Origin: Erysipelotrichaceae bacterium
GTDB lineage: Bacteria > Bacillota_I > Bacilli_A > Erysipelotrichales > Erysipelotrichaceae
NCBI GenBank assembly: GCA_017404205.1
Contig: JAFRCV010000018.1
Coordinates: 9,029 to 73,028 of the forward strand
Direction: 5' to 3'
DNA length: 64,000 nt
The position numbers were made by a program, and so were the translations under genes. Shown piece by piece: positions 8,967 through 61,951 of this stretch (position 1 is its first letter; each line of letters starts with the position of its first letter). The notes under the pieces were generated by a model. It did not search any database and had not been told where the DNA came from. It was given only the letters and a program-made list of their open reading frames with translations.

Positions 8967-8978
8967 GGAAGGTTTTTG

Positions 8979-10700
8979 ATGATTGGTTTTTGCACAAATT
9001 GTGGAAGTAAACTAAGACAAAATGTAAATTTTTGTCCTAGATGTGGAGCAAAAGTAATTGAAGACATTAGCAATGAAAAAATAAATAAAGAAAGTGTTGT
9101 TAAACTAAACGACAATAATAATGGCTATATTGAGCAAAATGATGATTTACTCTTTGTAAACAAACAACCGAAAAGGAACAAAGCTTCAATACCTGCAATC
9201 ATAATACTAATCCTTTGCATTCTTATTCCATTGATTATAACTGTTGATTATTGTGCTAGTAGTATTGGCACCGCTTCTAATTCTTCTAAAAAAGAAAACT
9301 ACGAAGTCGCCACTATTGAGCACAAGTATACTTTTGACAATCCTTTAACATGGAACAATATTGCAACATATTATACAGAAAGCGGGTGGAAGCTAACCAA
9401 AAACGATGATGGAACTTATACACAATTGTCTCCTGACGAAAAGAGCCTATTAAAATTTTATAATACTACATATACTGATGGTGATACGATATCTGATGAG
9501 GATATGTATTATCTTCTAGTTCAAAAAATTAAAAATATTAAAGCCTTTTCAGATTTGGAAGAAATTGAATACACGGAAGAAACAACATCCAATGGAATAA
9601 AATGTATATTTGTTTTTAATAATTATCATGATATAGAATATGGAGTCGCTTGTATAAGATTCGATAAAAAGCATGCAGCATGCATTATTTATGCTTCAGA
9701 TTTATATAACGATTGTGAACAATATTTAAAAGATTTTGTTAATCATATCTTGCCATATGCAAACAACGATAATAAAACAGTCAAATCCTCATCGCCTATG
9801 GCTAATGGTGCTAATCTTTATACTAAGTCGTCAAAAGATATGAATATTGGTGATGCTGTTGCTTATGATAATCTATATGTTGGTTTATCTTATGTCAAGA
9901 AGAGTGATCACTGCACTTATTTATATAATTATAAAAACTTTGCTCCTTCTGGACATGATTATATTTATGCGTTTGTAGAAGTTTTGAATACAGGGAAAAA
10001 ACCAATAACCATTCTTGATAGTGATTTCTCAATGTATGCTGATTCACAAAAAATAGAAGGCATAACAGATTTTATCTTTTCTTGTAAAGAAGACAAAGTA
10101 GTACAAAACTACAGTTATGAGTTAGATCCTGGCATGAGGGCATATATATTATTAGATTTTGAAGTTGATAGCGATTGGCAGGAATTGGATTTCTTTTATC
10201 AAAATAACAATTGGCACTTAACAAAAAATGATGTTTCTACTTCATCTTTTGATAGGAAGTCTATTTTCAATTACACGTTAAATGAGCCTTACAATAAAAC
10301 TGGTGATATCGTTGGTATTGGAAACAACTATACTATAACTTATGACAATGTCACTTTGAAAAAGGCTGGTGACTATTTTTCAGATGATGATTATGTTATA
10401 TTCATGTACACAATTCAAAATAATGGCAATTCTCCACTTGATTTGTCGCTAGTTGGATACAAAATGAGAGCTTACCAAAACGGAATATTATTAGGAAATG
10501 CAGAATATTTGCTTAATCAAGATACCATTAATGGTTATACAAACATATTCAGCGTTGACAACATTCAGGGAGGAATGAATGCAAAATTATTTGTGGCTTT
10601 CCCTACAGAAAGTTTTGAAGGATCATTTTACACAACATTAGATATGGGATATGCAAATAACGAAATAATAGGACATGTAAATATTGAAAAAGCACAATAA
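8979..10700 (+). CDS. Zinc-ribbon membrane-anchored protein with two DUF4352-like extracellular domains
   Basis: CTNCGSKL...CPRCGAK is followed by a TM helix (IPAIIILILCILIPLIITV). Two beta-rich modules resemble DUF4352 (YIYAFVEVLNTGKKPITI and YVIFMYTIQNNGNSPLDL). The track start at 8976 is TTG. I prefer the ATG at 8979, which follows SD AAGGAAGG. Confidence 0.65.
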   Translation: MIGFCTNCGSKLRQNVNFCPRCGAKVIEDISNEKINKESVVKLNDNNNGYIEQNDDLLFVNKQPKRNKASIPAIIILILCILIPLIITVDYCASSIGTASNSSKKENYEVATIEHKYTFDNPLTWNNIATYYTESGWKLTKNDDGTYTQLSPDEKSLLKFYNTTYTDGDTISDEDMYYLLVQKIKNIKAFSDLEEIEYTEETTSNGIKCIFVFNNYHDIEYGVACIRFDKKHAACIIYASDLYNDCEQYLKDFVNHILPYANNDNKTVKSSSPMANGANLYTKSSKDMNIGDAVAYDNLYVGLSYVKKSDHCTYLYNYKNFAPSGHDYIYAFVEVLNTGKKPITILDSDFSMYADSQKIEGITDFIFSCKEDKVVQNYSYELDPGMRAYILLDFEVDSDWQELDFFYQNNNWHLTKNDVSTSSFDRKSIFNYTLNEPYNKTGDIVGIGNNYTITYDNVTLKKAGDYFSDDDYVIFMYTIQNNGNSPLDLSLVGYKMRAYQNGILLGNAEYLLNQDTINGYTNIFSVDNIQGGMNAKLFVAFPTESFEGSFYTTLDMGYANNEIIGHVNIEKAQ

Positions 10701-20035: not shown

Positions 20036-21658
20036 ATGGCATTAGATGGAATTATACTAAGCAAAGTAAAAGATGACTTAATTAGTCATCTTCCAATGCG
20101 TATAAATAAAATAAATGAAACATCTTCTACAGAGATTGTTTTTAATGTTCATTCTAATTCGCTTAGAACAAATCTTGTCATCTCTTTACATAGCATCTAT
20201 AATCATATAGCTTTATCAAATGCGAATTATACAAATTATAATGAGCCATCTACTTTTGTGATGGTTTTAAGAAAATATCTTACAAATGGCATAATTTATA
20301 AGATTGAACAATTTAACTATGATCGATATCTATTGATACATATCAGGGCATTAAATGATATGTATGATGAAAAGGAGTATCTGCTTAGTGTTGAACTTAT
20401 GGGCAAATATGCCAATTTAATTCTTATTGACAAAGAAAATAATAAAATAATTGATGCTTTGAAAAAGATACCTCCATATCTCAATAACAAGCGCACTATC
20501 CTTCAAGGGGCAATCTTTACTCTTCCTGAAAACCAAAATAAAAAAGATCCTTATAATGATTTAGATATTGATTTTAATGAATCTTTAGTTAAGCAAATAC
20601 AAGGTTTTTCTAAACAATTAGAAAGTGAAATAAGACATCGTTTAATAAATGAGCCATATGAACACATTATTGAAGAAATTAAAAATGCCAAAAGTCTTTT
20701 TGTATCTTCAAATAATGAATATCACATCATACCTTTAACATATTTAAATGAAAATTATAAAGAATATAGCTTTAGTGATGGTTTTGATTATCTATATTAC
20801 TCCGCAAATGAAAAAGAAAGAATTAAAAGTGTCACCGAAGATATCGATAAATTTATTAAAAGACAAAGTAAACACTTTGAAACAAAATTGATTAAATTAA
20901 GGCAAAGTTTAACTGATGGTGAGAATCTTTTAGATGATAAAGAAAATGGTGAATTGTTATATACTTATTCTAATCTTGAACAAAAAGGATTAAAAGAAAT
21001 TGAAATCACTGATTATGATGGTGAAAGTAAGACAATCAAATTAGATCCTAAACTATCAATTAAAGCTAATGCCAACAAATATTTCAATACATATACTAAA
21101 AAAAGAAAGGGCAAAGTCTACATTGAAGAACAGATCGACATAGCTGAAAAGGAATTAGAATACTTTAATGCTTTAAAGGAACAATTAGATATGGCTTCAT
21201 ATGATGATGCCCTTCAAATAAGAGAAGAATTAATAAAATATGGTTATCTAAAAAAGAAGCTAAATCATAAGCTTAAAAAACAAAAGAAAATTAATCTATA
21301 TCAAATTAAAGTTGATGGTTATACTATTACTTTTGGTAAGAATAATATACAAAATGACTATTTAACTTTTACTTTTGGCAAAGCACATTATACTTGGTTC
21401 CACGCTTTAAACTATCATGGTTGCCACTTAGTTGTTGATAGCGATAAGCCAAGTGAAAAAATCATTCGTTTGTGTGCTAATTTAGCTGCATATTATTCAA
21501 AAGGGCGTTATTCTAGTTCTTTGCCTGTTAGCTATTGTTTATTAAAAGATGTTAAGAAAATAAAAGGTGGCAAATTAGGTTTTGTCACCTTCAAGAACTA
21601 TAAGACAATTTATATTGATCCCGAATTTGATTCTAATCTACAAATTTCCATTATCTAA
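20036..21658 (+). CDS. rqcH: NFACT-family ribosome quality-control protein RqcH (FbpA-like)
   Basis: MALDGIILSKVKDDL... NFACT-N, a coiled-coil middle, and NFACT-R (HGCHLVV). The start was moved to the ATG at 20036. Confidence 0.85.
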   Translation: MALDGIILSKVKDDLISHLPMRINKINETSSTEIVFNVHSNSLRTNLVISLHSIYNHIALSNANYTNYNEPSTFVMVLRKYLTNGIIYKIEQFNYDRYLLIHIRALNDMYDEKEYLLSVELMGKYANLILIDKENNKIIDALKKIPPYLNNKRTILQGAIFTLPENQNKKDPYNDLDIDFNESLVKQIQGFSKQLESEIRHRLINEPYEHIIEEIKNAKSLFVSSNNEYHIIPLTYLNENYKEYSFSDGFDYLYYSANEKERIKSVTEDIDKFIKRQSKHFETKLIKLRQSLTDGENLLDDKENGELLYTYSNLEQKGLKEIEITDYDGESKTIKLDPKLSIKANANKYFNTYTKKRKGKVYIEEQIDIAEKELEYFNALKEQLDMASYDDALQIREELIKYGYLKKKLNHKLKKQKKINLYQIKVDGYTITFGKNNIQNDYLTFTFGKAHYTWFHALNYHGCHLVVDSDKPSEKIIRLCANLAAYYSKGRYSSSLPVSYCLLKDVKKIKGGKLGFVTFKNYKTIYIDPEFDSNLQISII

Positions 21659-22363
21659 ATATTTCTTAAGTTTAACTACTTCAATTGGTTTTAATTTTCG
21701 ATATTCACCTACTTGTAGTTTACCTAATGTGATATTAGCTTCTTTTATGCGATTTAATCGTGTAACTTTAAAATCAAATGTTTCAAACATCTTTCTGATT
21801 TGACGATTTCTACCTTCGTGAATTGTCACTTCTAAGAAGCTTGTTTTTTTATTTTCATTAATGCGAAGCAATTTAATTGAACAGGGAGCTGTTTTTCTTC
21901 CATCGACAATAACACCTTTTTCAAGCTTTTCAATTATATCTTTTGTGATTAGACCATTAATAGTAACTTCATATACTTTATCAATATTGTATTTTGGATG
22001 TAGCATCTTTTGTGTCAATGTTCCATCGTTTGTTAGTAAAATCAAACCACTGCTATCAAAATCTAATCTTCCTATTGGATATAAGCGATATTCACATTCT
22101 ACAAGATCAACAACTGTTTTGCGGTCTTTATCATCGCTAGCACTTGAAATAATACCTTTTGGCTTATTTAAAAGATAGACCACTTTTTCTTCTTTTCCAA
22201 GTGGCTTTCCATTTATTTTTATATCAGCTTCTTTCTCACATTTAAAACCAAGTTCTTTAATGGTTTTTCCATCAACTGATACTTTTCCACTAACAATTAA
22301 TTCTTCAGCTTTTCTTCTTGAACAATAGCCGCTTTCAGCAATAATTTTTTGTAGTCTTTCCAT
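21638..22363 (-). CDS. rluB: Pseudouridine synthase, RsuA/RluB family
   Basis: S4 domain (MERLQKIIAESGYCSRRKAEELI) and catalytic motif GRLDFDSSGLILLTNDG. Confidence 0.85.
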   Translation of the reverse strand: MERLQKIIAESGYCSRRKAEELIVSGKVSVDGKTIKELGFKCEKEADIKINGKPLGKEEKVVYLLNKPKGIISSASDDKDRKTVVDLVECEYRLYPIGRLDFDSSGLILLTNDGTLTQKMLHPKYNIDKVYEVTINGLITKDIIEKLEKGVIVDGRKTAPCSIKLLRINENKKTSFLEVTIHEGRNRQIRKMFETFDFKVTRLNRIKEANITLGKLQVGEYRKLKPIEVVKLKKYLDNGNL

Positions 22364-25041
22364 GTTTTTTCTTTTAATCTTTCTATTATCATATACACAA
22401 TAATCATCGCTATTCCATACAATATTAACACAAATCCAATTGTACCAATAATGAAAAAGTTTTGATTATCGACAGCTGAATTACTAGAATTAATGTTCTC
22501 TAAATAATCAGGAATATCATAAGTGTTGACACTGTCCCTTGCCAAGATGACAAAATCACCTGTCTTTTTAGTTAAAAATTGAATATAAGAATTACTTTGA
22601 CTTGTACGGCATTTAACTATATCACCATCATCATATCTATAAACTGTATAAGTCTTGTTTGTATCTTTATTTGGAATCTTCAAAGAGAAGATTAAGGCGC
22701 CATCAATATTTACACGCTTAAAATTCAAAGATAAAGATATATTAATGTTGTCAACAACACTAAAACCATAGGCTTCACCTATTTCTTTTAAATGTTTATT
22801 ATTGACATTTTTGATATGTACATAATATGTATCACTAATCGGTTTGAATAAGAAAAACTTATTTCTTTCGGGCAAACTTAAAGAAAGTCCAGACACTGAC
22901 AAATCATAATTATTATCATCAATATGATATTTTGAATCATCATTTAACAATAATGCCTGGTCTATTATTCTAATATCATTGAAGTCATAATTGTAGTTAA
23001 CTTTGCTTAGATTATTCTTTATTTCTTTTATTTCATCAAGATTAAAATTATTACTATTAAATGAATTTATATTCTTCTGAATTAATGAACGTGTGACATC
23101 ATTAAGATTATTTAAATACTTAGATACATTAATCTCTTTATTGATGTTAAGGCCACAATAAGAAATATTTAAATTCTGTGTACCATCTTGATAGATATTA
23201 ATTCCACTTAGCATATTAGAATCAACAGGTATTTTTTCTTTGTGATTGTTTTCATAAGTAAGCGTCAAATAGACATCCCTTAAATCAAAATAAGATCCTA
23301 ACTCAATACTACTATCTAACTTTGAATTAATGTCGATTGATTTAATTTTTTTATATTTTGCGGTATATGTTTTTTCTTCATTGGCTGGACTTAATTCTTC
23401 TTCAAATCCGTTAAATAAATAATTAGTATACTGTGGTTTAACAGTAATTGGCATTTTATCTTTTAAGAATTTGATTTCAATTTTTGAAGAATTGTTAATT
23501 GTTCCACCGTTTCCATCAAAAGTAATTTTGATTAATTCGTTTTGATGCATATTATCTTCATTCATCACATAATCAAAATATTCTTTATCAACATATGCAA
23601 TTGAATTATCAAAATCATATAAATAATCGCTTGAAAAGCTTGGATCAACTTGAACCTTATAGGAATTATCATTTTTGTTTAAGATAATTAACGAATAGTC
23701 TTCTATTCCATTTATTGTAAATCTATTTCTTTTTAATTCATCACTTGTATAAAAGTTCACTTTTGGGCCATTTAATATAATGCCCAAACAATAGCTATTA
23801 TAATCTTTAAACCCTAAGTTCTTATCTAATTTATAGTAATTAGAAGCAGCTCTTTCTCCCCAATATGCATCAAGTGAATATTCAACATTCATTCCACTTA
23901 ATTTATTGCCAAAAAATGAGCCGTTGTATAAGGAATTGCGATAATTACAATAACGATCAGAAATGTAATACTTTGTATATGAATAAACAGAATCGCTGAT
24001 ACTTGAATAGTGATTATCATTTCTTTCACTATCGCTATCATATGCTGAATTATAGAAAAGATTATTTTCGCTATATGCTCTAAAATTCTTTCCATAAGCA
24101 CTTTCATTTATTGATACAGCTAAAGACATTAAGGCATTAACACCATAGATATTTTGATAGGCAAAGAAAGAATCTAATTCACCATAATATTGTGATCTAT
24201 TAATAACATCATTGGCTCCATCTTTGGCCTGATCATCATAATTATTTATCTTGCCATTAATCTTTAAAACATCATAGAAATAATCTTCAATTTCACTATA
24301 TTCATAATTTGTAAGGCTTCTTTGTGGAAGATACATATAATAGTTATAATAGGCAACATCATTTATAGCGTTTGTATAATTATCATTTTTATAATCATCA
24401 ATCATTTTATAAAAATCATCATAAAAATAATGGCCATCATAACTATAATAATCAACATTATCATTTAAAAAAGATAAAGATTTATCTAATTCAAGCACAC
24501 TAGAATAATAATCTAAATCCAATTGTGTTTTAATCTTATGATTAAAGGAACCATCAATATTTTCATATGTTGATATACGAACATCTAATAACTCATATGG
24601 ATGTAATATAACATCATCGCTGTTAATCATTCCAATATCGCCTGAGTATTTAAAATAGATATATCTTCCATCATTGCTTGTATTTAAATATGCAGCATCA
24701 ATTCCATAACAAGCATTAATGCTTGTTGAAGAATTACGAATTTGGGAACGATATTCAATATTCAAGCTACAGGCATCGTTGCTGGCGAATTCAACAACTC
24801 CATATTCCATTTTGATAACTTTGTCATTTTCATATAAAACTAAATTATCATAATCATTTAAAAGAATTGAATAACTATAATTTGCACTTGTATAGTCATC
24901 ATAATATTCAATTATTTCTTTTTTTCCTTTTGAGACATCGGCAAGATAATACCCATCTTCTGCTCTAACATGAAAAGAAATACTATAAGTGAAAATAGCA
25001 CTCAACAAGAATATCAAAATCAATTTATTGACTTTGCGCAT
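22297..25041 (-). CDS. Large secreted, C-terminally membrane-anchored protein with a GH73 (N-acetylglucosaminidase)-like domain and Ig-like/Flg_new-like modules
   Basis: Signal peptide MRKVNKLILIFLLSAIFTYSISFHVRA. GH73-like motifs: LAVSINESAYGKN, NNLFY, AYWGERAASNYY. ITFDGNGGT is Flg_new-like. A Big_3-like segment is present. The C-terminal TM helix is FFIIGTIGFVLILYGIAMIIVYMII. Confidence 0.65.
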   Translation of the reverse strand: MRKVNKLILIFLLSAIFTYSISFHVRAEDGYYLADVSKGKKEIIEYYDDYTSANYSYSILLNDYDNLVLYENDKVIKMEYGVVEFASNDACSLNIEYRSQIRNSSTSINACYGIDAAYLNTSNDGRYIYFKYSGDIGMINSDDVILHPYELLDVRISTYENIDGSFNHKIKTQLDLDYYSSVLELDKSLSFLNDNVDYYSYDGHYFYDDFYKMIDDYKNDNYTNAINDVAYYNYYMYLPQRSLTNYEYSEIEDYFYDVLKINGKINNYDDQAKDGANDVINRSQYYGELDSFFAYQNIYGVNALMSLAVSINESAYGKNFRAYSENNLFYNSAYDSDSERNDNHYSSISDSVYSYTKYYISDRYCNYRNSLYNGSFFGNKLSGMNVEYSLDAYWGERAASNYYKLDKNLGFKDYNSYCLGIILNGPKVNFYTSDELKRNRFTINGIEDYSLIILNKNDNSYKVQVDPSFSSDYLYDFDNSIAYVDKEYFDYVMNEDNMHQNELIKITFDGNGGTINNSSKIEIKFLKDKMPITVKPQYTNYLFNGFEEELSPANEEKTYTAKYKKIKSIDINSKLDSSIELGSYFDLRDVYLTLTYENNHKEKIPVDSNMLSGINIYQDGTQNLNISYCGLNINKEINVSKYLNNLNDVTRSLIQKNINSFNSNNFNLDEIKEIKNNLSKVNYNYDFNDIRIIDQALLLNDDSKYHIDDNNYDLSVSGLSLSLPERNKFFLFKPISDTYYVHIKNVNNKHLKEIGEAYGFSVVDNINISLSLNFKRVNIDGALIFSLKIPNKDTNKTYTVYRYDDGDIVKCRTSQSNSYIQFLTKKTGDFVILARDSVNTYDIPDYLENINSSNSAVDNQNFFIIGTIGFVLILYGIAMIIVYMIIERLKEKTWKDYKKLLLKAAIVQEEKLKN

Positions 25042-25077
25042 AACTTAATTTTAACATTACTAGCTAAAAGTTGTATT

Positions 25078-25311
25078 CTACAACAAATATAAAATCTTGG
25101 ACTTAGGCAATTTAAAACTACTTAATGGCACTTCTTTATTTAAAGCTACATGTTTTTCTAAATCATAGATATAGTTTTCTTGTTTAAAACTAAGTGTCTT
25201 GATTGTTTTTAATAATTCAAAGTTTTCTATAAAACTCAACCTTGAATCAAAAATGACCTCAATAAGTTCTGAACTTTTTACTATATAAAAGCGCAATAAT
25301 ATTTTATTCAT
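25078..25311 (-). CDS. Small protein, possible YukD/EsaB-like ubiquitin-fold T7SS accessory protein
   Basis: 77 aa, overlapping the EssC-like stop by 8 nt. Size, position and the C-terminal ..ILYLL loosely resemble EsaB/YukD. No strong motif. Confidence 0.3.
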   Translation of the reverse strand: MNKILLRFYIVKSSELIEVIFDSRLSFIENFELLKTIKTLSFKQENYIYDLEKHVALNKEVPLSSFKLPKSKILYLL

Positions 25312-28300
25312 ATTCTACTATTCTTATTTTTTCTCCTTTATTATTTCTTAAATAAAAGGCTTCATTATCATTTAATTCTTCTTTCCCATCGATATAAAAA
25401 AGTCTTTGAGAATATAGACCATCGCCAACCCACAAATAATGATAATTATTCTTCTTATTTAAAGCTTCGATATATTTTAAAACTTCAATATTCTCATTGT
25501 CTTTATATATTTTTCTCAGCTTTTCTAATATTTCATCATCATATGAAGAAATAATTAATTTTTCTTTATCTGTTATATAGATCTTTTCTCGTTTTATTAA
25601 ACTATAACCAATTAATAATTTATTGTTTATTCTTTCGTATTTAATATTGTTTGGAATATGCTTAATATATGGTTTGTATATGCTTTCTTCTTGTATAAAA
25701 TCTTCAATCAGACATGGAACAAAAGGAATCAAATGTTCATCATAATAAAAAGAATCACCTTTATAAGCACTTCTTTCTGCAAATATGTTCATTAAATCTT
25801 GATTATCGTTAATATTGATTACATATTTATTCTTAAAACTGTTTAATAATTTAAAGGATATTGTTGATTGTTTACTAATCGCAATTATTCTAATGCCACC
25901 CACAATGCTTCTTGCGAGTAATTGAAATAAACAAGAACTGTAAATATCATCATATGATAATAAACACGACAAATCTTCAATAATTAAATTTATATCTTTA
26001 TTCTCTTTCATTAAACTTTTAAATAGATATATGATGTCTTCACTATCTTCAAACAATAAGCTATCGCTTATGTACTTATTGGCATAATGTTTAAAACCTA
26101 TGACAATTGTTTGTTTATTTAATGAATTTAATATATTATTTATTTCCTTACGATTTGAATATATAAATGCATTCTCTTTATCATTGAGAAACAATACATT
26201 TTTCAAGTCATTTAAATAATCATCAATTTCACCCAAAATTATTTTTGAATCTATATGGTATTTTTCTTTAATGTCCATTAATGTTAGTGGCTTTGGTTTA
26301 TTAAAATCTAATAATTCTTTTTTAATCTTCAAGTCCTCACAAGCACTATTGATCTTATTAACTATATAACTAGCTTCTGTAAAAGGGGTATTCTTTTTTA
26401 ATACTTTTTTGTTTATGATATTTAAACGATTATCTAATAGTGAAACTTCGTAAGTACTTTTATTATTGACATCATTTTTACTATAAATGGCTTTGCCTTT
26501 TAAAAGATTATCATCAATAGCTAAATAAAATTCTCCTGCTTTATGCAAATAAGCAGCAGATTTAGACTTAATAATATCATTGGAATCTTTTTCAGTTAGA
26601 ACTTTTAACGCAATCTTAAAATGGCTGTTTGACCATATCTCTTCATCAATAATTCCACTTGGCTTTTGAGTAGCTAATATTAAATGTAAGCCCAAGCTTC
26701 TTCCTATCCTGGAAAACGAAATAAGGTTTTTGATGAATTCAGGGTTTTCTTTTTTTAATTCAGCGAATTCATCAACAACTATCAATAAATGGGCAATATT
26801 GGGCAAATTGTATTCTGCACTATTATTGTCTATATAATCATCAATATTCATGATGGATGTCATCGCTTTGTTAGATAATTCTTTAAATAGTTTTTGCCTT
26901 TTCTTGCATTCAAAATCAATTGATACAATAAGCCTTTCAAATATATCGCTTTCAAGATTATTTACTGATGCAATAATGTGGGGAAGTCTTTTATTCATAT
27001 AAGAAAGTGATTCTTCTATTCCCCCTCCCTTATAATCTATTAAAATAACATTTAAATAATCAGGTCTATAAACAATAGCTAAAGATAGTATTAATGAAAT
27101 AATTAATTCACTTTTGCCACTTCCTGTACTACCACCTATCAAGCCATGTGGACCGCTTTTACTTTCATGAAGGTCAAAATTCAATAATTCATTTCCGACG
27201 AAGGCAAATTTAGCTTTAAGACCTTCCTGTTTTTGAATATAATTGTTCGTTATATCAAAATCATCAAATATGTTTTTAAAAGAAGCATTATCCTCAATGG
27301 CTTTATTATCTTGATATGTGCTTATCAAATGACATGCGCTTGTATAATTAATATCTTCTAATTTATATTTAAATTGTTTTTTATCTTCTTCATAAATATA
27401 TGAATTCTCATTATCATATTCAATTAATACATCACTATCTTTATAAATATCGTTTTTTTCTGATGTAAAATAGATTATTTTTAATAAGTTATTATTAATC
27501 TCAAAATCTAAATGATCACACGCAAATAAAATAATTGGCTTTTCAAACTTTATACTGTTTAATTCCTGAACCTCTATTTTTTTATTTAGAGTTAAGCGAT
27601 TATTATTAAAGAAAAGCTGTGGCAATCCAAAAAAATCTTTATATGTATATAAGTCCTCACTATAAATAGCTAAGTAAAAGTCATCATAATAATACTTGCT
27701 GCTTAATTCTAATAAAAACTTTTTAGCCAACAATTCTTTGGTCTTCTTATTTGCCAATATCGTTATTCTTGCATATCTTTTTATATCTAAAAAATATGGT
27801 GTATTCTCTACATTCAAAAGTCGATATTTAATTCTTCTTAAAGCTTCATCAATGTCCTTGTCGTCGTATTCTTTAATTTCAATATCGTATTTGCTTGTAA
27901 TATGACCAATTGAGATATTGAGAAACTGGTCGTTTTTATCTGTAATATTAAATAATTTATCTTGTTCTATTTCTCCATTAAAAAATAATTTTTCTTCTTG
28001 TTTAAGATATGCTGATATTTTTGAATCTAAATCAATGGCATATTTTTTAAGATAATCCAAATATCTATTCTTATTATCTTTTATTAAGTTTCTGTTTTCT
28101 TTTTTCTCGCTAGTAGAAGAAATAATTGGCCACATAACTCCAGATATCAACATTGTTAAGGGCATCAACAAGTATATTAGACTATTTTGTATAGGCGCAT
28201 CATTTAAATAATTATTGTAAACATTTATAAGGGCAATGGACAACATCGCTAAGGACATTGTAATGCTTGGACCAATTTGATAGACTAATTTCTTTTGTTT

Positions 28301-28951
28301 AGTTGCGTGTATTTTTGAATATTCTTTTATTTTTGGAATTTCTAATTCTTTTCTTTTAGATAAATAATAATTATTAGTAAGTGGCCGATTGTTTTCATAT
28401 TTAATGATCTTCTCGCTTAATTCAATTCTTTTGACATTATTCTTATTTTTGAAACTATTAATATATAAAAAATCTTTGTAATAAAAAAATATGAAATTAT
28501 GTAAGCTAATCTTATCACCATCATTTAATTCCTCACCACTGTAGAAGTGGTTATTTAGTAATAAATCTGGATAATTTGTCTCTATTATATTTTCTTTTAA
28601 ATATAGATAAATATCACTTAAATATTCATCTTCATTAATAATGTTGGCTTTATTACTTTTTGCATAAATAAATGATTTGTTTTCATAAAGATGATAATCA
28701 TTAAAACCTTCATCGTTGTCATAAACGTATATTTCTAAAACTATGAGAAAATTAGTATTATAAATTTTATACTTTCTTCTCTTTATTCTCTTTGTTGTTT
28801 CGTTATTTAAGAACCTAAGCCCTCTTTTTGAAACAAGATAATAATCATTATCTTGTTTAATGATCTCTATATTCGCGTATTTATATGGCAGTTTCGTTTT
28901 TTCAAGAATTAGTCTTTTAAATATGTTTCCATCTTTTATAACAATGAACAT
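25304..28951 (-). CDS. EssC/YukBA-like FtsK/SpoIIIE-family T7SS ATPase, shortened, with a single intact P-loop
   Basis: N-terminal FHA-like segment (..NDGDKISLHNFIFFYYKDFLYIN). Two TM helices (IGPSITMSLAMLSIALINVY and LIYLLMPLTMLISGVMWPIISS). Walker A is GGSTGSGKSE, Walker B is LLIVVDEFAEL, followed by GLHLILATQKPSG. The C-terminal ~350 aa has no P-loop. Confidence 0.8.
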   Translation of the reverse strand: MFIVIKDGNIFKRLILEKTKLPYKYANIEIIKQDNDYYLVSKRGLRFLNNETTKRIKRRKYKIYNTNFLIVLEIYVYDNDEGFNDYHLYENKSFIYAKSNKANIINEDEYLSDIYLYLKENIIETNYPDLLLNNHFYSGEELNDGDKISLHNFIFFYYKDFLYINSFKNKNNVKRIELSEKIIKYENNRPLTNNYYLSKRKELEIPKIKEYSKIHATKQKKLVYQIGPSITMSLAMLSIALINVYNNYLNDAPIQNSLIYLLMPLTMLISGVMWPIISSTSEKKENRNLIKDNKNRYLDYLKKYAIDLDSKISAYLKQEEKLFFNGEIEQDKLFNITDKNDQFLNISIGHITSKYDIEIKEYDDKDIDEALRRIKYRLLNVENTPYFLDIKRYARITILANKKTKELLAKKFLLELSSKYYYDDFYLAIYSEDLYTYKDFFGLPQLFFNNNRLTLNKKIEVQELNSIKFEKPIILFACDHLDFEINNNLLKIIYFTSEKNDIYKDSDVLIEYDNENSYIYEEDKKQFKYKLEDINYTSACHLISTYQDNKAIEDNASFKNIFDDFDITNNYIQKQEGLKAKFAFVGNELLNFDLHESKSGPHGLIGGSTGSGKSELIISLILSLAIVYRPDYLNVILIDYKGGGIEESLSYMNKRLPHIIASVNNLESDIFERLIVSIDFECKKRQKLFKELSNKAMTSIMNIDDYIDNNSAEYNLPNIAHLLIVVDEFAELKKENPEFIKNLISFSRIGRSLGLHLILATQKPSGIIDEEIWSNSHFKIALKVLTEKDSNDIIKSKSAAYLHKAGEFYLAIDDNLLKGKAIYSKNDVNNKSTYEVSLLDNRLNIINKKVLKKNTPFTEASYIVNKINSACEDLKIKKELLDFNKPKPLTLMDIKEKYHIDSKIILGEIDDYLNDLKNVLFLNDKENAFIYSNRKEINNILNSLNKQTIVIGFKHYANKYISDSLLFEDSEDIIYLFKSLMKENKDINLIIEDLSCLLSYDDIYSSCLFQLLARSIVGGIRIIAISKQSTISFKLLNSFKNKYVININDNQDLMNIFAERSAYKGDSFYYDEHLIPFVPCLIEDFIQEESIYKPYIKHIPNNIKYERINNKLLIGYSLIKREKIYITDKEKLIISSYDDEILEKLRKIYKDNENIEVLKYIEALNKKNNYHYLWVGDGLYSQRLFYIDGKEELNDNEAFYLRNNKGEKIRIVEYE

Positions 28952-30882
28952 TATTTTTTGCTTACCAGAATATTTATAGATGCTTCGTATTTTTGATCAT
29001 TTGTCATTATTTTTACCTCGGATGATCCCATCTTTTTTGCGATTATCTGCCCCTTATTGACTCCTACAATATTGTTGTCTGAACTTTTTAAAACAATATC
29101 ATTATAGCTATAGCCATTGGGAATTTGTTTAATTGGGATATCATATGTATCACCAACATATAATACAGCAGCATATTTTTCTAATATGATCTTTTCAACA
29201 TTTTGTGTTATTGAATTATCCTTGATTTTCTTTAATTGTTTTTTTCTTGTACATGAATTCATTAATATGCCATTTTCAATATGTGTTTTATTGCCAAATA
29301 TTTGATTAGCAGTATCCAAGATATTTAGGTTTTTTGATAGGCCAAACTTATTCAGTAGCGTTTTTGATGTATTGAAATTCAAATCTAACACCCAATTTAA
29401 TGAAATATCGCCACATATCTTTACGTTGTTATTTTCTTTAGCGATTTCATCTAATGATGAATATGGCAGTTCACTTTGAATAATTTCTTCTTCACCTTCC
29501 TCATCATATAAATGAAATGTTGATTTAACGTTTGCTTTTATGCCACCATCAATTTCAAAGTCCATCAATCGATTATTTATTGCTTCTAAATTAAAATTGA
29601 TCCCTATTAAAGCTTTAGCGCTTCCTCCTAAAATAAAATCAACATCAGCATCGTTTTCATTTATTGTTCTTAGTAATCCGTTTTTTATTTCAAAGCCATT
29701 TTCTCTTCTGTTAGCCAAGACTACTTCAGCTTTGCCACTTGTGTAAATTTTAACCACAACTTCAATATTAAAATATGCACTTGGTATGTTGGGAATTGGC
29801 GTTTTAACTTCACATATTCGAATACTTGCTTCTACTTTGTCATCTTGTGGTTTAATTACTGACTTTAGCGAATTCAAAAAATTTTTTGCATCTAATTCTT
29901 TAAAATCTAAATAATAATTGTTATATCGTTCAACAGATACACCTAATTCGCTTGTTGTTTGATATGCCACTTTAAAATATGCTTCTTTTAGTTTTCCTTC
30001 TTTATAATCCCATTTATATGCGGGCTTCACATCACTTAAAGCTAAATCATAAAATACATTTACACCTTTAATGTTTTTCGATATATGAATGTCAATTCCA
30101 TTACTTTTAAAACTATAGCTTATGCGAAAGCCATCGTTATAAAACACTTTACTGTTAGATGATGACAATAATTGACGATTTAGATTTTGATATACTTGCC
30201 TTTCATCAACTAGATCACCTCCAGGAATATCGATAGCTTCATTAAAATCTATTTCATATGAGTCTTCAATGTTGATATCCTCAAATACTTCATTAACACT
30301 TGCGTTTTTTAATATATATCCATCTTCTTTTATTTCTTTGACTATTTTATAATCGCCATCAATAAGAAGGATGTCACCTACTTCATATTCCTCAAAACTT
30401 TTTAAAATTGTTCCATCATATTGTTCAATGTCTTTAACATCTTTAATATTTTCTTTCTCTTTATATTCATAACTTGAAATAAATGTTTGATTATTAATAA
30501 TATCAATGGCTTTATCTATTATCTCATTTGTTTCTTTTTTGCTTATGAGATTATTTTCTTTTTTATTCTTCGGAATAATATTTATATTTTTTAATTCGTT
30601 TAAATAGTTACTTTCAATATCTAATAGGCGACCAATTGTTATTGAAAGATATTTATAATCTAAGCCTAAATATAATTTATCTAATTCTTCTTGCTTTACT
30701 ACACCCCAAACTATTAAGTTACTTATTTTGTCATCTTCATTACTTAAGCCTGCTTTATCGCTTAACAGGCTTAAGTATTCTTTTCTTGTATAAGTATCAA
30801 CCTTTTTACATGATGCACATGTTATTAAGATTAATATTATGCAAAACGCTTTAATAATCTTATTACTCAAAGTTCGATGCAT
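28951..30882 (-). CDS. Lipoprotein of unknown function with a C-terminal Big_2-like Ig domain
   Basis: MHRTLSNKIIKAFCIILILITCASC looks like a lipoprotein signal. The C-terminal segment VGDTYDIPIK...SSDNNIVGVNKGQIIAKKMGSSEVKI is Big_2-like. The start overlaps the WXG gene by 20 nt, and the stop abuts the EssC-like start. Confidence 0.6.
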   Translation of the reverse strand: MHRTLSNKIIKAFCIILILITCASCKKVDTYTRKEYLSLLSDKAGLSNEDDKISNLIVWGVVKQEELDKLYLGLDYKYLSITIGRLLDIESNYLNELKNINIIPKNKKENNLISKKETNEIIDKAIDIINNQTFISSYEYKEKENIKDVKDIEQYDGTILKSFEEYEVGDILLIDGDYKIVKEIKEDGYILKNASVNEVFEDINIEDSYEIDFNEAIDIPGGDLVDERQVYQNLNRQLLSSSNSKVFYNDGFRISYSFKSNGIDIHISKNIKGVNVFYDLALSDVKPAYKWDYKEGKLKEAYFKVAYQTTSELGVSVERYNNYYLDFKELDAKNFLNSLKSVIKPQDDKVEASIRICEVKTPIPNIPSAYFNIEVVVKIYTSGKAEVVLANRRENGFEIKNGLLRTINENDADVDFILGGSAKALIGINFNLEAINNRLMDFEIDGGIKANVKSTFHLYDEEGEEEIIQSELPYSSLDEIAKENNNVKICGDISLNWVLDLNFNTSKTLLNKFGLSKNLNILDTANQIFGNKTHIENGILMNSCTRKKQLKKIKDNSITQNVEKIILEKYAAVLYVGDTYDIPIKQIPNGYSYNDIVLKSSDNNIVGVNKGQIIAKKMGSSEVKIMTNDQKYEASINILVSKK

Positions 30883-31159
30883 TTGAAGTAATTGTTGATT
30901 CTAAAGAATCGTATGTAGATACAGTGTAGTCTAAAAATTTTGCGTACTCTTCGATAGTTTGGCTTTCATCAATAAAGCGTGTTGCGAATTTCTGAAATCT
31001 TGCAATTATAGCTTCTTCTGCATTTGATTTCCATATAGAGCTAAGATCTAACATCATGCGATTGACATTACTTAACACATCATCCAAATTGGCATTTATA
31101 TTTCGAATGTTAATTGCACAATTGCTAACTTCTGGTAAAGTTATTCTAATATCTTCCAT
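30863..31159 (-). CDS. WXG100-like small helical protein (degenerate WxG, C-terminal YxxxE)
   Basis: 98 aa with SIWKSNAEEAIIARFQKF at mid-protein and STYDSLEST near the C-terminus. SD TAGGAGGAA. Confidence 0.6.
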   Translation of the reverse strand: MEDIRITLPEVSNCAINIRNINANLDDVLSNVNRMMLDLSSIWKSNAEEAIIARFQKFATRFIDESQTIEEYAKFLDYTVSTYDSLESTITSNASNFE

Positions 31160-31167
31160 AATTCCTC

Positions 31168-31470
31168 CTATATTTTTAGTCTGCTTGCTGCGCTAGTTAA
31201 TTCATCTTGGACTTCTTGATATGCTCTTGCACTAGCTCTTAAAAATTCTGCGTATTGGCGCATAATTATTGAAATTTGCCTAAAGTCATCCTCATACGAT
31301 TTAATTCGGCCATAAAAAGCCAAATTGTCCTTTCCTCCCCAATTTCCTGAAAGCTTATCAACTTCACTATAGAGACTTTGGTAAAGCCTTTGATAATCTC
31401 CATCGGCACTTTCAATCCTATTAGCTGTATTTAAAAGCTTACTTGGTTCAACATTAATTGATGTATTCAT
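31168..31470 (-). CDS. WXG100-family (EsxA-like) protein
   Basis: 100 aa from the ATG at 31470 (SD AGGAGGAA). LSGNWGGKDNLAFYGRI is a central W-x-G turn. The C-terminal pattern LRASARAYQEVQDEL is typical. Confidence 0.75.
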   Translation of the reverse strand: MNTSINVEPSKLLNTANRIESADGDYQRLYQSLYSEVDKLSGNWGGKDNLAFYGRIKSYEDDFRQISIIMRQYAEFLRASARAYQEVQDELTSAASRLKI

Positions 31471-31523
31471 GTTTTTTCCTCCTAATTCTTTATTATTCAA
31501 ATAAATAAAAAATCCTTATTTTT

Positions 31524-31559
31524 GTATAAAAAAATCGATTGCTTTTAAACAATCGATTT
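31524..31559 (-). terminator. Intrinsic terminator separating the SPFH operon from the WXG100 genes
   Basis: On the minus strand, AAATCGATTG-8 nt-CAATCGATTT is followed by UUUUUUUAUA. Confidence 0.7.
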
Positions 31560-31581
31560 GATAAAAGAATTTATTCTTATT

Positions 31582-31719
31582 TTATTTCTTACTGAAGCCT
31601 ATAATTGCGATTATAGCGAAAACAATAAGAGCAATAGCTAAACCTATGCCACTTGTCAATAAGCTGACAACTATAAGCATTGAGATAAAGCCGATAATTG
31701 AGCCACCATATTTTCCCAT
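31582..31719 (-). CDS. 45-aa hydrophobic small membrane protein (below the ORF-track cutoff)
   Basis: MGKYGGSIIGFISMLIVVSLLTSGIGLAIALIVFAIIAIIGFSKK, with SD GGAG upstream and a strong terminator after it. Confidence 0.4.
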   Translation of the reverse strand: MGKYGGSIIGFISMLIVVSLLTSGIGLAIALIVFAIIAIIGFSKK

Positions 31720-31757
31720 ACTTACTCCTTCACTTATAAGCTTAATTTAATTATACT

Positions 31758-31946
31758 TTAATTTTGTTTTTCAAATACAAGATCATATTCAAGTATATTT
31801 CCATAAGATCCAATAACAATTGGCAAATAACCTTTAAATGTGTATCCTTTTTTTGCCATGTCGAAGATTACTTCTTCGCTATCTTCAAAGCTATTAGATA
31901 ATAATCCGTTTTTTGATTTTACTCTAATTAATTGTACGTCTATCAT
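31758..31946 (-). CDS. DUF4177-like small protein
   Basis: 62 aa. The ..FDMAKKGYTFKGYLPIV..YDLVFEK pattern resembles DUF4177. It immediately follows the SPFH gene. Confidence 0.4.
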   Translation of the reverse strand: MIDVQLIRVKSKNGLLSNSFEDSEEVIFDMAKKGYTFKGYLPIVIGSYGNILEYDLVFEKQN

Positions 31947-31955
31947 ATTATCTTC

Positions 31956-32741
31956 CTAATTAGCTAAATCAATAATTGTGCCATTACCACCAGTTACTGT
32001 TGGCAATTCACCGTTCCATTTTTCAATCTTTTTGTATTCTATTACATTACTACTTAATGATTTAGATAAAATGTCATTTGCCTCAGCTTCAGCTTCTGCT
32101 TTGATTTTTAAAGTTTCGGCTTCAGCTTCTGCCTTTGTGATTGCCGTTTGTTTTTCTGTCTCAGCAGTTAATAATTTTTGTTGTGCAACTTGTTTTTCTT
32201 CTATTGCGTTAATATAAGCATCAGAGAATTCATAATTAATAATATTAACATCTGTAACAAACAAACCGAATTCATTTAGTTTTTCATTTAAACCCTCTAC
32301 TAAGCCTTCTGAAATAAGCACACGATTAACAACTGATTCTTCAGCAGTATATTGAGAAGTAATAGCTTTTAATACTTCATTTACTGCTGGAATAACGAGG
32401 ATGTTTTCATATTCAGAACCAATGTTTTTATAAATGTTATAAGATTGATTCTTATCTATACGATAATTGATCGCTAAATTTGTTTGTACTGTTTGCAAAT
32501 CTTTTGAAAAAGCTTCAGTTTCAACTTCTAGTTTTACAATACGGTTATCAATTTCAACGATCTTTTGAATAAATGGTACTTTCAAATGAAAGCCTTCTTG
32601 AAGCACATTATCTTCTACTTTTCCCATTGTAACAATTACACCAGTGTGTCCAGGTTTAACAGTTTTAATACTGCTTAATAATAAGATTAAAATAAATACT
32701 CCAACAATAGAACTAATAACAATTTTCTTTACGTTTTTCAT
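31956..32741 (-). CDS. SPFH/band-7 (prohibitin-like) membrane protein
   Basis: N-terminal TM helix, an SPFH core, and a C-terminal Ala/Glu-rich coiled-coil (AEAEAETLKIKAEAEAEAN). Confidence 0.85.
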   Translation of the reverse strand: MKNVKKIVISSIVGVFILILLLSSIKTVKPGHTGVIVTMGKVEDNVLQEGFHLKVPFIQKIVEIDNRIVKLEVETEAFSKDLQTVQTNLAINYRIDKNQSYNIYKNIGSEYENILVIPAVNEVLKAITSQYTAEESVVNRVLISEGLVEGLNEKLNEFGLFVTDVNIINYEFSDAYINAIEEKQVAQQKLLTAETEKQTAITKAEAEAETLKIKAEAEAEANDILSKSLSSNVIEYKKIEKWNGELPTVTGGNGTIIDLAN

Positions 32742-33697: not shown

Positions 33698-34423
33698 TTA
33701 TCTATTTAATAATTTTGCGGCACTTTCATCTACCACTACTACTACATTATCATGTTTTTGCAAAATTGATGCTGGACATGCTTCTTGAATTTCACCTTCA
33801 ACCATTGCTTTTACAGCTTCAGCCTTATTTTCGCCTGTAGCAATCAAGATAATCTTTTTAGCTCTCATAATAGTTGCTATACCTTGAGTTACAGCTTGAT
33901 GAGGAACTTTGTTCATATCAAAGTCAAAGAATCTCGCATTATCTTTGATTGTTGGTTCAAGTAAATCAGTAACATGTGTAATAGAATCAAATGGTGTTCC
34001 TGGCTCATTAAAAGCAATATGCCCATCACTTCCAATTCCTAATACTTGAATATCAATTGGATTTTCTTCAATCATTTTGTCATAAGCTAAAGCTTGGCCT
34101 TCCAAGTCTTCGCCTAATCCGCTTGGAACATGAGTATTTTCCTCAGGAATATCAATATGATTGAATAGATTTGTATGCATAAATGCATAATAACTTTCAG
34201 GATGAGTAATTGGTAAACCAACATATTCATCTAGATTAAATGTTTTGATGTCTTTATAAGAAGTTCCATTCTTTTTATGATCATCAACCATTCTTGCATA
34301 TAGGCCAAGTGGACTAGAACCAGTAGCTAAGCCTAATACTTTGCCAGCAACAAGATATTCTTTCATTTCCTTAAACATCACATCACTAGCTTCTTCATAA
34401 TTTTTTGTTACTATAACTTTCAT
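33698..34423 (-). CDS. nagB: Glucosamine-6-phosphate deaminase/isomerase
   Basis: 241 aa with GLATGSSP, FNLDEYVGL and LGIGSDGHIAFNEPG. SD AGGAGG. Confidence 0.92.
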   Translation of the reverse strand: MKVIVTKNYEEASDVMFKEMKEYLVAGKVLGLATGSSPLGLYARMVDDHKKNGTSYKDIKTFNLDEYVGLPITHPESYYAFMHTNLFNHIDIPEENTHVPSGLGEDLEGQALAYDKMIEENPIDIQVLGIGSDGHIAFNEPGTPFDSITHVTDLLEPTIKDNARFFDFDMNKVPHQAVTQGIATIMRAKKIILIATGENKAEAVKAMVEGEIQEACPASILQKHDNVVVVVDESAAKLLNR

Positions 34424-34444: not shown

Positions 34445-34600
34445 ATATTTTAAGAGTAAAATAATTCCTTCGCTATGTATCTGTTTTGAGATTGTTCTCA
34501 TATTTGTCACAACGTTCGTGTAGGTAACACGTAGGAGCATCCGCCGAATCTTTCGAGAACCCCTATCCTCGTCAACCCCATGGGTCCAGGCGCTAATACC
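34445..34600 (-). ncRNA. glmS-type GlcN6P-dependent self-cleaving ribozyme in the nagB 5' leader
   Basis: The minus-strand RNA reads AGCGCCUGGACCCAUGGGGUUGACGAGGAUAGGGGUUCUCGAAAGAUUCGGCGGAUGCUCCUACGUGUUACCUACACG... It reproduces the glmS core blocks AGCGCC, GACGAGGAU and UCGAA..UUCGGCGGAUGC, with P1, P3 and P4-like hairpins. A TATAAT box (34612-34617) lies about 15 nt upstream. Confidence 0.8.
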
Positions 34601-34623
34601 AAGCTTTTATCATTATACAACAA

Positions 34624-53687: not shown

Positions 53688-53697
53688 CTTTTCCTCC

Positions 53698-61895: not shown

Positions 61896-61897
61896 AT

Positions 61898-61950
61898 AAA
61901 AGGGGCAACCCTTTAAACTAATCACTTAGTTTTTGGACAGCCCCTTTTTT
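61898..61950. terminator. Compound hairpin between convergent genes
   Basis: AAAAGGGGC...GCCCCTTTT outer stem enclosing AAACTAA-tcac-TTAGTTT. Confidence 0.45.
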
Positions 61951-61951
61951 A

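Follow-up and report, generated by a model that had tools for sequence, protein, structure and literature searches.

Type VII secretion is defined by an EssC/EccC ATPase together with WXG100 proteins, and which of its parts are indispensable is still debated. This question is raised by a locus in a 64,000-nucleotide stretch of an Erysipelotrichaceae genome (contig JAFRCV010000018.1, positions 9,029 to 73,028; the whole 64-kb stretch is hereafter the window), in which two WXG100 genes and the gene for a shortened EssC-type ATPase lie beside genes for a predicted lipoprotein, a small YukD-like protein and a cell wall hydrolase. Which of these genes belong together, and do they amount to a secretion system? 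The locus, known here from sequence alone, consists of six minus-strand open reading frames (ORFs) between 31500 and 22297, labelled g1 to g6 in order of transcription. An earlier inspection of this DNA, the original prediction, saw in them either a minimal type VII secretion system (T7SS) with the lipoprotein and the wall hydrolase as its envelope module, or a distinct, undescribed apparatus. The reading preferred here, held with a probability of roughly 0.7, is that g1 to g5 form a conserved five-gene type VII-family export system (two WXG100 proteins, a lipoprotein, a short EssC and a YukD-like protein), and that g6 most likely belongs to the chromosomal backbone. Related loci, designated L002 and so forth, were read at ~20 kb each, with ~10-kb flanks. 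The elements of the window locus are:

31532-31559, minus strand: hairpin resembling an intrinsic terminator (12 pairs and a T-run), just 5' of the cassette
31168-31470, minus strand: g1, TsxA1-type WXG100 protein, 100 amino acids (aa) from the ATG at 31470
30863-31159, minus strand: g2, TsxA2-type WXG100 paralogue, 98 aa (Pfam and NCBIfam NF035934)
28951-30882, minus strand: g3, predicted type VII-associated lipoprotein, 643 aa (lipobox, AlphaFold 2 (AF2) model, homologues)
25304-28951, minus strand: g4, shortened EssC/TsxC ATPase, 1215 aa (profiles, AF2, Foldseek)
25078-25311, minus strand: g5, putative YukD/EsaB/TsxB-like ubiquitin-fold protein, 77 aa (profile-profile comparison)
22297-25041, minus strand: g6, LytB-like GH73 N-acetylglucosaminidase, 914 aa (profile against LytB)

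The genes are closely packed: g2 and g3 overlap by 20 nt, g3 and g4 by 1 nt at a TAATG junction and g4 and g5 by 8 nt, and a gap of 36 nt without a terminator-like site separates g5 from g6. The hairpin, read 31559-31532, is the sole minus-strand terminator-like site within 21500-32500. The original prediction had described just these six frames with their coordinates and junctions, a strong terminator before g1 and none inside the gene block, a WXG100 protein followed by a second WXG-like protein, a 643-aa lipoprotein with a Big_2-like C-terminus, a 1215-aa ATPase of EssC layout with two transmembrane (TM) helices and Walker A and B motifs, a 77-aa protein of YukD/EsaB size, and a 914-aa protein with a signal peptide, a GH73-like domain and a C-terminal TM helix. 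These descriptions all hold, with two corrections to the WXG100 pair: the start of g1 and the motif of g2. The mechanical ORF of g1 extends to a TTG at 31500; the most likely start is the ATG at 31470, which has an AGGAGG upstream and is also the start called on the source contig. The window belongs to a metagenomic contig, and in an NCBI genome bin with identical proteins g3, g4 and g6 all carry the label ‘hypothetical protein’.

Membership of the type VII family is borne out by the WXG100 proteins and the ATPase alike. The product of g1 is recognised as WXG100 by Pfam (E=1e-9) and with 45.1 bits exceeds the TIGR03930 cutoff of 44.85; conserved in its family are W-x-G-KDN and, at the C-terminus, AY(R/Q)E(T/V)QDEL. 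The product of g2 matches Pfam WXG100 with E=1.7e-6 and NF035934 (‘pore-forming ESAT-6 family’) with 105.1 bits, the cutoff being 100; its family has W-x-S instead of W-x-G, a conserved YDSLE (YxxxE) and then a NAS-x-F tail. The two are distinct paralogues, each conserved separately, and the linkage of WXG100 genes to the ATPase gene is kept in all related loci. Because toxin cargo is not encoded nearby, the WXG100 pair is itself the likely effector.

The ATPase g4 matches the EssC profile TIGR03928 with E=1e-97 (under the equivalog cutoff), against 1.6e-10 for FtsK, and in a profile of 20 of its homologues positions 127-874 align to residues 163-964 of Bacillus subtilis YukB (9qks) with E=1.9e-95. 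The sole Pfam match of g4 is FtsK_SpoIIIE, accompanied by weak TraG-D_C and TcpA similarities, and on these grounds it could be a DNA translocase or conjugative coupling protein whose linkage to WXG100 genes is coincidental. Such an identity has next to no likelihood: the E values for EssC/YukB are tens of orders of magnitude better than those for FtsK, g4 aligns to EssC in its EssC-specific N-terminus, TM hairpin and D0 domain, WXG100 and YukD-like genes are invariably linked to g4 homologues, and no relaxase or conjugation genes lie nearby in the window. The profile scores and the alignment of the N-terminus and D0 refute it. The grouping that the original prediction had put up for checking therefore comes out on the EssC/YukB/EccC side, with best matches far above FtsK.

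Within this family g4 is unusual in its domain composition, which can be laid out as follows:

g4 residues 1-~200: degenerate FHA-like region
g4 residues 226-279: TM hairpin
g4 residues 285-585: D0
g4 residues 586-850: D1, the predicted catalytic domain
27110-27136, minus strand: D1 Walker A, GGSTGSGKS (residues 606-614)
26765-26788, minus strand: D1 Walker B, LLIVVDEF (residues 722-729)
g4 residues 851-1106: D2, degenerate
26135-26167, minus strand: degenerate P-loop position of D2, FIYSNRKEINN (GK[ST] absent)
25307-25633, minus strand: ~110-aa alpha/beta stub in the place of D3 (residues 1107-1215)

The TM hairpin comprises two hydrophobic segments (residues 226-244 and 258-279) joined by a loop of only ~13 residues. 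In D1 the motifs GGSTGSGKS and LLIVVDEF are largely invariant across 20 homologues of 28-61% identity, as is a RIGRSLG-HLILATQ motif. In D2 the P-loop is lost from the consensus of the short-EssC family, which has no GK[ST], whereas long EssCs read GVAGSGKT there. D1 thus holds the only intact P-loop of g4 and is predicted to be the only domain able to hydrolyse ATP. Comparison by hhalign with a profile of 59 EssCs of 1490-1600 aa from the fetched loci (the long EssCs) relates the N-terminus of g4 to their FHA region (probability 97.4%), residues 285-590 to their D0 (99.0%) and residues 835-1131 to their D2 (99.2%); no part of g4 aligned to their D3. A D3 hidden Markov model (HMM) found zero matches in any short EssC; its scores of 1e-55 and 7e-78 in two long EssCs, both training members, show only that the model is not empty. 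The tail of g4 was also considered as a diverged D3 and rejected (hhalign probability 0.6%, no hmmsearch match).

The AF2 model of residues 285-1215 (predicted local distance difference test score (pLDDT) 86.3) consists of three P-loop-like domains followed by a compact alpha/beta domain of ~110 aa, and its best Foldseek match is the cytoplasmic domain of EccC (4nh0, E=2e-32). The final block, with pLDDT mostly 76-89, runs beta-beta-beta-alpha-beta, an order resembling the start of a P-loop domain without the P-loop; only because of this resemblance may the stub be regarded as a vestige of D3. At the other end of the protein the phosphothreonine (pThr)-binding residues of FHA domains (GR, SxxH and NG), present in the long EssCs, are replaced throughout the short clade, in g4 for example by AK and SDIY. 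The EssC-like family and motifs recognised in the original prediction stand, and to them are added the single intact P-loop and the missing D3, the most unusual feature of the protein, which had been overlooked.

The small protein g5 has no direct match in Pfam or NCBIfam, and its link to YukD was therefore made through profile-profile comparison. By hhalign its family aligns with small proteins whose genes lie downstream of those for long EssCs (probability 98.3%, E=2e-14); two of these proteins match Pfam YukD below threshold (E=3e-5 and 7.5e-3), and the top PDB match of its profile is a ubiquitin-like protein over the full length (E=0.027). On these profile similarities g5 is accepted as a putative YukD/EsaB/TsxB-like protein.

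Between the WXG100 pair and the ATPase lies g3, whose parts are:

g3 residues 1-25: signal peptide and lipobox
g3 residues 33-130: helical, SLH-like domain
g3 residues 137-220: small beta domain
g3 residues ~245-545: large beta domain with very long antiparallel strands
g3 residues 565-641: Big_2 immunoglobulin (Ig)-like domain

Its N-terminus, MHRTLSNKIIKAFCIILILITCASCKK, is a signal peptide with the lipobox LITCASC, and C22 and C25 are near-invariant among 53 homologues; g3 is on this evidence a predicted lipoprotein. Homologues number 68, at 32-97% identity. When a profile of the g3 alignment was searched against a database of 1.84 billion representatives, 114 of the best 150 matches were end to end (560-760 aa), for which reason the family can be called abundant in public data; at least 89 of these 114 full-length representatives carry the lipobox pattern, and the family comprises more than 100 clusters at 50% identity that match from end to end. 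The AF2 model built from 53 homologues (pLDDT 85.7, predicted TM-score (pTM) 0.71) was compared by Foldseek with PDB and BFVD; the Big_2 domain was matched, and the long-stranded beta domain found no credible counterpart in either. The helical domain has a weak SLH match (6cwl_B, probability 1.0 but E=0.11). A membrane beta-barrel and a MACPF pore were considered for the beta domain, drew low-probability matches only and are not relied on. In ~17 loci examined a g3 homologue stands directly before the short EssC gene (or before a contig-cut gene in the EssC position), and in the window g3 and g4 are translationally coupled. Cassette lipoproteins measure ~620-710 aa.

Longer g3-like lipoproteins of 762-853 aa, with the central beta domain and Big_2, are encoded in Clostridia (L038:15283-17844, L026:14275-16563 and L081:15723-18047), where they follow the gene order C-B-A1-A2 in loci with long EssCs of ~1520 aa; by Pfam, L038 continues downstream with DUF6382+FHA, PP2C and Ser/Thr kinase genes. 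The family is therefore not limited to the short-EssC cassette and is common also to kinase-regulated systems of T7SSe/j type such as L038. A g3-like lipoprotein is not among the named components in the T7SS survey of Garrett, Higginson & Palmer (2024, Microlife 5:uqae013; PMC11217815).

Whether these genes form a unit is best judged from other genomes. The order WXG-WXG-lipoprotein-EssC-YukD-like recurs in ~17 independent loci, several Erysipelotrichaceae genome bins among them, and was present in every related locus that was readable:

L002, L003/4, L005/6, L008-L010, L012, L015 and L039: five-gene order
L032, Holdemania filiformis DSM 12042: five-gene order
L049, Erysipelotrichaceae bacterium NK3D112: five-gene order
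L094, found independently via lipoprotein homologues: five-gene order
L013: partial order to the contig end, which falls inside the EssC gene
L092/93, found via lipoprotein homologues: partial order to the contig end, the gene after the lipoprotein being contig-cut and unannotated
L021 and L056, fragmentary Solobacterium contigs: lipoprotein gene present, gene order unreadable

Homologues of g4 measuring 1193-1223 aa fall into 37 clusters (38-98% identity), to which a relative of 1273 aa (35%) adds a 38th; canonical EssCs of ~1500 aa match g4 over part of the query only. Contig-cut L013 apart, the cassette EssCs measure 1195-1309 aa, and a crude neighbour-joining (NJ) tree groups the short EssCs in one clade, separate from every long EssC. 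The flanks of the cassette are housekeeping genes and their synteny is stable within each sub-clade (rluB/NFACT/gmk; rbfA); the cassette is therefore chromosomal and vertically inherited, and the same observations rule out a mobile island comprising the whole block. Two contigs with the cassette in Erysipelotrichaceae-type synteny (g6, gmk) carry other bin labels, ‘Candidatus Methanomethylophilaceae archaeon’ for L011 (CAVBAX010000047.1) and ‘Oscillospiraceae bacterium’ for L008 (CAVKAO010000028.1), and are probably mis-binned.

The loss of D3, the degeneration of D2 and of the FHA motifs and the absence of accessory genes would also fit a decaying, non-functional remnant of a T7SS. Such decay is highly improbable given that the five ORFs are intact across loci whose EssCs fall to ~24-30% identity to g4, and are translationally coupled in the window; that the catalytic motifs of D1 are largely invariant; that the lipoprotein family is conserved end to end across its clusters; and that the AF2 models are confident. 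In [Eubacterium] hominis (L014, 3714-14360) an FHA protein, a Ser/Thr kinase and a 1017-aa Ig-rich protein with a signal peptide precede a 1328-aa EssC, a YukD-like B, A1 and A2. This EssC keeps the canonical FHA pThr-binding residues and has no D3 profile match, and the locus may link T7SSe/j-type systems to the compact cassette as an intermediate.

The conserved order ends with g5, and the position of g6 must be considered separately. Its recognisable parts are:

g6 residues 279-412: GH73 core
g6 residues 553-640: Ig-like domain
g6 residues 860-890: C-terminal TM helix, followed by a conserved 24-aa cytoplasmic tail

With a profile built from g6 and four homologues, residues 279-412 match the Streptococcus pneumoniae LytB structures 7pj3 and 4q2w (E=2e-19); the motif SINESAYGKN aligns with SALESNWGRS of LytB and keeps the conserved glutamate. 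The protein starts with a signal peptide, and most of its homologues carry a precomputed PF01832 assignment. In the six-gene reading of the original prediction it would be a dedicated envelope component that opens the wall, as does EssH, a peptidoglycan hydrolase of the Staphylococcus aureus T7SSb that is required for EsaA to cross the wall and is needed for T7SSb secretion (PMC13059805). In keeping with such a role, g6 lies on the same strand 36 nt past g5 with no terminator-like site between, so that co-transcription with the cassette is possible; homologues follow the cassette in L002, L003/4, L008, L011 and L094; the cytoplasmic tail is conserved; and the signal peptide, C-terminal TM helix and Ig-like domain recall TsxI. 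The closest relatives are, however, the only loci in which a g6 homologue follows the cassette. Full-length homologues of 37-38% identity (P0411 and P0420) stand directly upstream of rluB and NFACT in L088-L091, with no type VII gene within 10 kb upstream, where the genes are a Mur ligase, Ddl, VanY and an unknown 300-aa protein; conversely, the five-gene cassette occurs without a g6 homologue in L005/6, L012, L015, L032, L039 and L049. Because homologues occur without type VII genes and cassettes without g6, a shared chromosomal position explains their adjacency. Most simply, g6-rluB-NFACT can be read as an ancestral backbone in front of which the cassette sits in one lineage, and g6 is most likely a housekeeping wall hydrolase of that backbone and a mere neighbour of the cassette, which makes a dedicated role in secretion unlikely.

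A membrane-anchored protein of 538-550 aa is encoded 1-3 kb downstream of the cassette in two loci in which a g6 homologue is absent (L009:13913-15529 and L010:16647-18299). In L009, where it takes the place of g6 and could be counted in favour of a hydrolase component, it is unrelated to g6 and contains SH3_3 and the ‘putative glycosyl hydrolase’ domain DUF4015 (E=2e-61); the L010 ORF is an unprofiled look-alike. These proteins could be a coincidence or a functional substitute for g6. Of the minimal T7SS originally proposed, the minimal system itself and its lipoprotein, linked to the ATPase in ~17 loci, are retained, whereas the wall hydrolase probably does not belong to it. Likewise, the exact six-gene block is conserved in its first five genes across these loci, with g6 only in the closest relatives.

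The absence of the usual membrane partners, on which the original prediction rested, was confirmed over a wider range. Neither YukC/EssB, EsaA/YueB and EssA/YueC nor LXG proteins, kinases, PP2C phosphatases or an extra FHA protein turned up among the six products, elsewhere in the window or in the 10-kb Pfam-annotated flanks of L002, L003 and L005. Genes of the TsxD (kinase), TsxF (PPM phosphatase) and TsxJ (DUF6382+FHA) types, readily detected in the comparison locus L038, are missing within ±10 kb in the window contig and these three loci, and TsxH and TsxK were not found in the locus or in the same flanks. The only envelope proteins of the locus are the lipoprotein g3 and the GH73 enzyme g6.

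It could still be supposed that this is an ordinary split T7SSb whose essB, esaA and essA genes lie elsewhere in the genome, of which 64 kb is visible, and work with g4, the sequence of which is nearest to Bacillota EssC/YukB. Several observations make this quite improbable. Unlike the EssC of T7SSb, g4 is without D3 and its D2 is degenerate; in place of a single esxA stand two different WXG100 genes; the same five genes recur in many genomes and varied chromosomal contexts, always with the lipoprotein before essC; and genomes encoding T7SSc have been found to lack T7SSa/b orthologues elsewhere (PMC11217815).

How a five-gene system of this kind might operate can be outlined from its better-known relatives. 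EssC would form a hexamer whose TM hairpins line a membrane channel, as proposed for other T7SS, with D1 alone supplying ATP hydrolysis. The YukD-like g5 would bind and stabilise EssC, much as YukD stabilises the YukB assembly in B. subtilis (Oka et al. 2025, PMC12637312). The A1/A2 heterodimer would be the main substrate and, because there are no toxin genes nearby, perhaps the only one; its signal would be read without a D3 pocket, by D2 or by the C-terminal stub. The lipoprotein would serve as the extracytoplasmic module, anchored by its lipid and reaching into the wall via its SLH-like, beta-rich and Ig-like domains, and could take over the part played by the ectodomains of EsaA, EssB and EssA, or by TsxI. 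The loss of the pThr-binding residues from the FHA-like region fits the absence, within the neighbourhoods searched, of the kinase, phosphatase and FHA partners of T7SSe/j. The stronger proposal that these parts make up a self-sufficient machine, in which a three-domain EssC with a single ATPase site, the YukD-like protein and the lipoprotein recognise and export a WXG100 heterodimer without D3, is put at somewhat short of an even chance.

Several points weigh against the five-gene reading itself. Coverage extends to 64 kb of this genome and ~20 kb per related locus, and genes for EssB, EsaA, EssA, a kinase or a phosphatase could lie elsewhere in the genome, which is the main gap. Export of the WXG100 proteins by the cassette is a prediction drawn from their sequences and linkage. 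The short loop between the TM segments of EssC offers no obvious extracytoplasmic docking surface for the lipoprotein. The YukD assignment of g5 runs through an intermediate family which is itself sub-threshold. The NJ tree is crude, its BLOSUM distances and gap columns may pull short proteins together, and it is built without reference TsaC-TsjC sequences. Lastly, the shared strand, the short gap without a terminator and the conserved tail of g6 may reflect its functional recruitment in this lineage.

As regards transcription, the hairpin before g1 terminates the upstream Band_7/small-ORF unit. The cassette's own promoter would lie in the ~60 nt between terminator and g1; the promoter scan, uninformative in such AT-rich DNA (76 sites against 85 expected), did not pinpoint it. 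Two small ORFs of 62 and 45 aa (31581-31946, minus strand) separate the Band_7 (SPFH) gene from the terminator. The annotation of the source contig counts both as genes; neither matches a family, and neither was seen beside the cassette in L002, L003 or L005; the 45-aa ORF is near-wholly hydrophobic: MGKYGGSIIGFISMLIVVSLLTSGIGLAIALIVFAIIAIIGFSKK. Further upstream, a full-length glmS ribozyme at 34461-34605 (minus strand; Rfam RF00234, 63 bits, E=4e-12) precedes a Glucosamine_iso gene, encoding a NagB-like glucosamine-6-phosphate deaminase (33698-34423, minus strand), and not the glmS synthase gene, an unusual placement. Elsewhere in the window, and with no relation to the type VII cassette, a competence pseudopilus operon of ComG type (~52216-55633, minus strand) contains genes for a T2SSE ATPase, a T2SSF platform and a ComGC-like pilin as well as several small pilin-like ORFs. 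Two zinc-ribbon membrane proteins (DUF4190, DUF4352) are encoded as a pair at 8418-10700, and ORFs of 555, 178 and 264 aa (60228-62488 and 3983-4777) have no Pfam match at E<=0.001.

The interest of the locus lies chiefly in what it lacks. Rosenberg et al. reportedly placed in 2015 the contact with the substrate signal on the last ATPase domain, D3. In the solved EccC-signal complex the substrate signal sits on a fragment of ATPases 2-3 (PDB 4n1a). If the present reading is true, a natural and widely conserved D3-less system without the known membrane partners would imply that signal recognition and channel formation can be achieved with much less; it would be the smallest natural T7SS core in a monoderm and a smaller target for structural biology. 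The unmatched long-stranded beta domain of g3 would then be a new kind of extracytoplasmic secretion component, and a new, abundant lipoprotein family would join the envelope proteins linked to type VII secretion. The classification of T7SS into subtypes a to j would be extended to a family common in the guts of humans, ruminants and other animals (Holdemania, Solobacterium and relatives). With the WXG100 pair as likely effector, its function is directly testable, and the system could be tested in cultivable Holdemania or Solobacterium. The searchable literature, which is incomplete, contains no description of the WXG-WXG-lipoprotein-EssC-YukD-like arrangement and nothing relevant on T7SSk/l or on type VII secretion in Erysipelotrichaceae, Solobacterium or Holdemania; no type VII biology in Erysipelotrichaceae is described there. 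Further T7SS arrangements are unsurprising after 2024, yet an EssC that naturally lacks D3, has a lipoprotein dedicated to it and is without any other known partner still stands out as unusual.

Subtypes T7SSc-j were defined from RefSeq neighbourhoods, which revealed many Bacillota arrangements other than T7SSb; TsxC occurs in all of them, TsxA in all but T7SSi (where none was pinpointed) and TsxB in all but T7SSd, and every TsxC has four NTPase domains (PMC11217815). In the accessible portions of that survey the main text makes no mention of Erysipelotrichaceae, Holdemania, Solobacterium or lipoproteins, and the supplements are likewise silent on these taxa. None of the subtypes a to j has the gene set of the cassette, its lipoprotein or a D3-less EssC. 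The suggestion of a distinct, undescribed apparatus goes too far: the arrangement is undescribed in the searchable literature, but set against T7SSc-j it is not a separate class.

With the T7SSb of S. aureus (Ess) and B. subtilis (Yuk/Yue) the cassette has in common an EssC with an FHA-like N-terminus, a TM hairpin, D0 and D1, the g4 profile aligning to YukB over ~750 positions, as well as a YukD/EsaB-like protein, WXG100 proteins and a monoderm Bacillota host. It differs in that EssB/YukC, EsaA/YueB and EssA/YueC are unrecognised at the locus, no LXG toxin/immunity genes lie nearby, two WXG100 paralogues replace the one EsxA, and the EssC, ~1500 aa with P-loop domains D1, D2 and D3 in T7SSb, is here reduced to 1215 aa without D3. 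EssH likewise provides a wall hydrolase gene beside a type VII locus, but it is a secreted CHAP amidase/peptidase, whereas the GH73 glucosaminidase g6, which is related to LytB of pneumococcus, is anchored in the membrane and keeps its chromosomal place in relatives without type VII genes beside it. T7SSg is comparably small, consisting of A1, A2, B, C and one extra protein, TsgL (PMC11217815). However, TsgC has no FHA domain (PMC11217815), whereas the N-terminus of g4 shares homology with the FHA region of long EssCs. The DUF5050 beta-propeller TsgL contrasts with the lipoprotein of the cassette, and DUF5050 has no match among the six products. T7SSg also adjoins Tad pilus genes, which do not flank the window locus.

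The nearest described systems are T7SSe and T7SSj. T7SSe combines an A1/A2 pair, TsxB and an FHA-bearing TsxC with conserved pThr-binding residues, together with a kinase, a PPM phosphatase, a DUF6382+FHA protein, small TM proteins and TseI, which bears a Sec signal peptide as well as a TM helix at its C-terminus (PMC11217815). The cassette matches T7SSe in its non-identical WXG100 pair (TsxA1/A2), and both subtypes in the YukD-like TsxB next to (downstream of) the ATPase, the FHA-type N-terminus of TsxC and the presence of a large Sec-exported envelope protein in the locus; the profiled locus L038, with its g3-like lipoprotein, has the gene content of T7SSe/j. Features of TsxI are divided between two proteins: g6 has the topology and one Ig-like domain but is a GH73 enzyme of the backbone, and g3 has a Big_2 domain but is a lipoprotein without a C-terminal TM helix.

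These likenesses, the g3-like lipoproteins of the Clostridia loci (L038, L026 and L081) and the fact that the nearest EssCs outside the family in a genome scan come from Bacillus, Neobacillus and Paenibacillus loci of this general type could suggest a plain member of T7SSe or T7SSj, with the kinase, phosphatase, FHA protein and small TM proteins encoded elsewhere. This is nevertheless rather unlikely. The Pfam-annotated flanks of four cassette loci contain no TsxD, TsxF, TsxH, TsxJ or TsxK; the FHA pThr-binding residues, conserved in TseC and TsjC (PMC11217815) and in the long EssCs compared, are lost; three NTPase-like domains, with D3 missing, stand against the four of all TsxC; the envelope partner is a lipoprotein and not a TseI-like protein with a C-terminal TM helix; the short EssCs form their own clade; and the gene order is A1-A2-lipoprotein-C-B, against C-B-A1-A2-lipoprotein in Clostridia. 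The locus is thus a further arrangement of the T7SSc-j kind and not a separate class of machine. The window system is best seen as a stripped-down relative of T7SSe/j-type systems from which phosphorylation control, the FHA binding residues and D3 have gone, and in which the lipoprotein gene has moved directly before essC relative to the C-B-A1-A2-lipoprotein loci.

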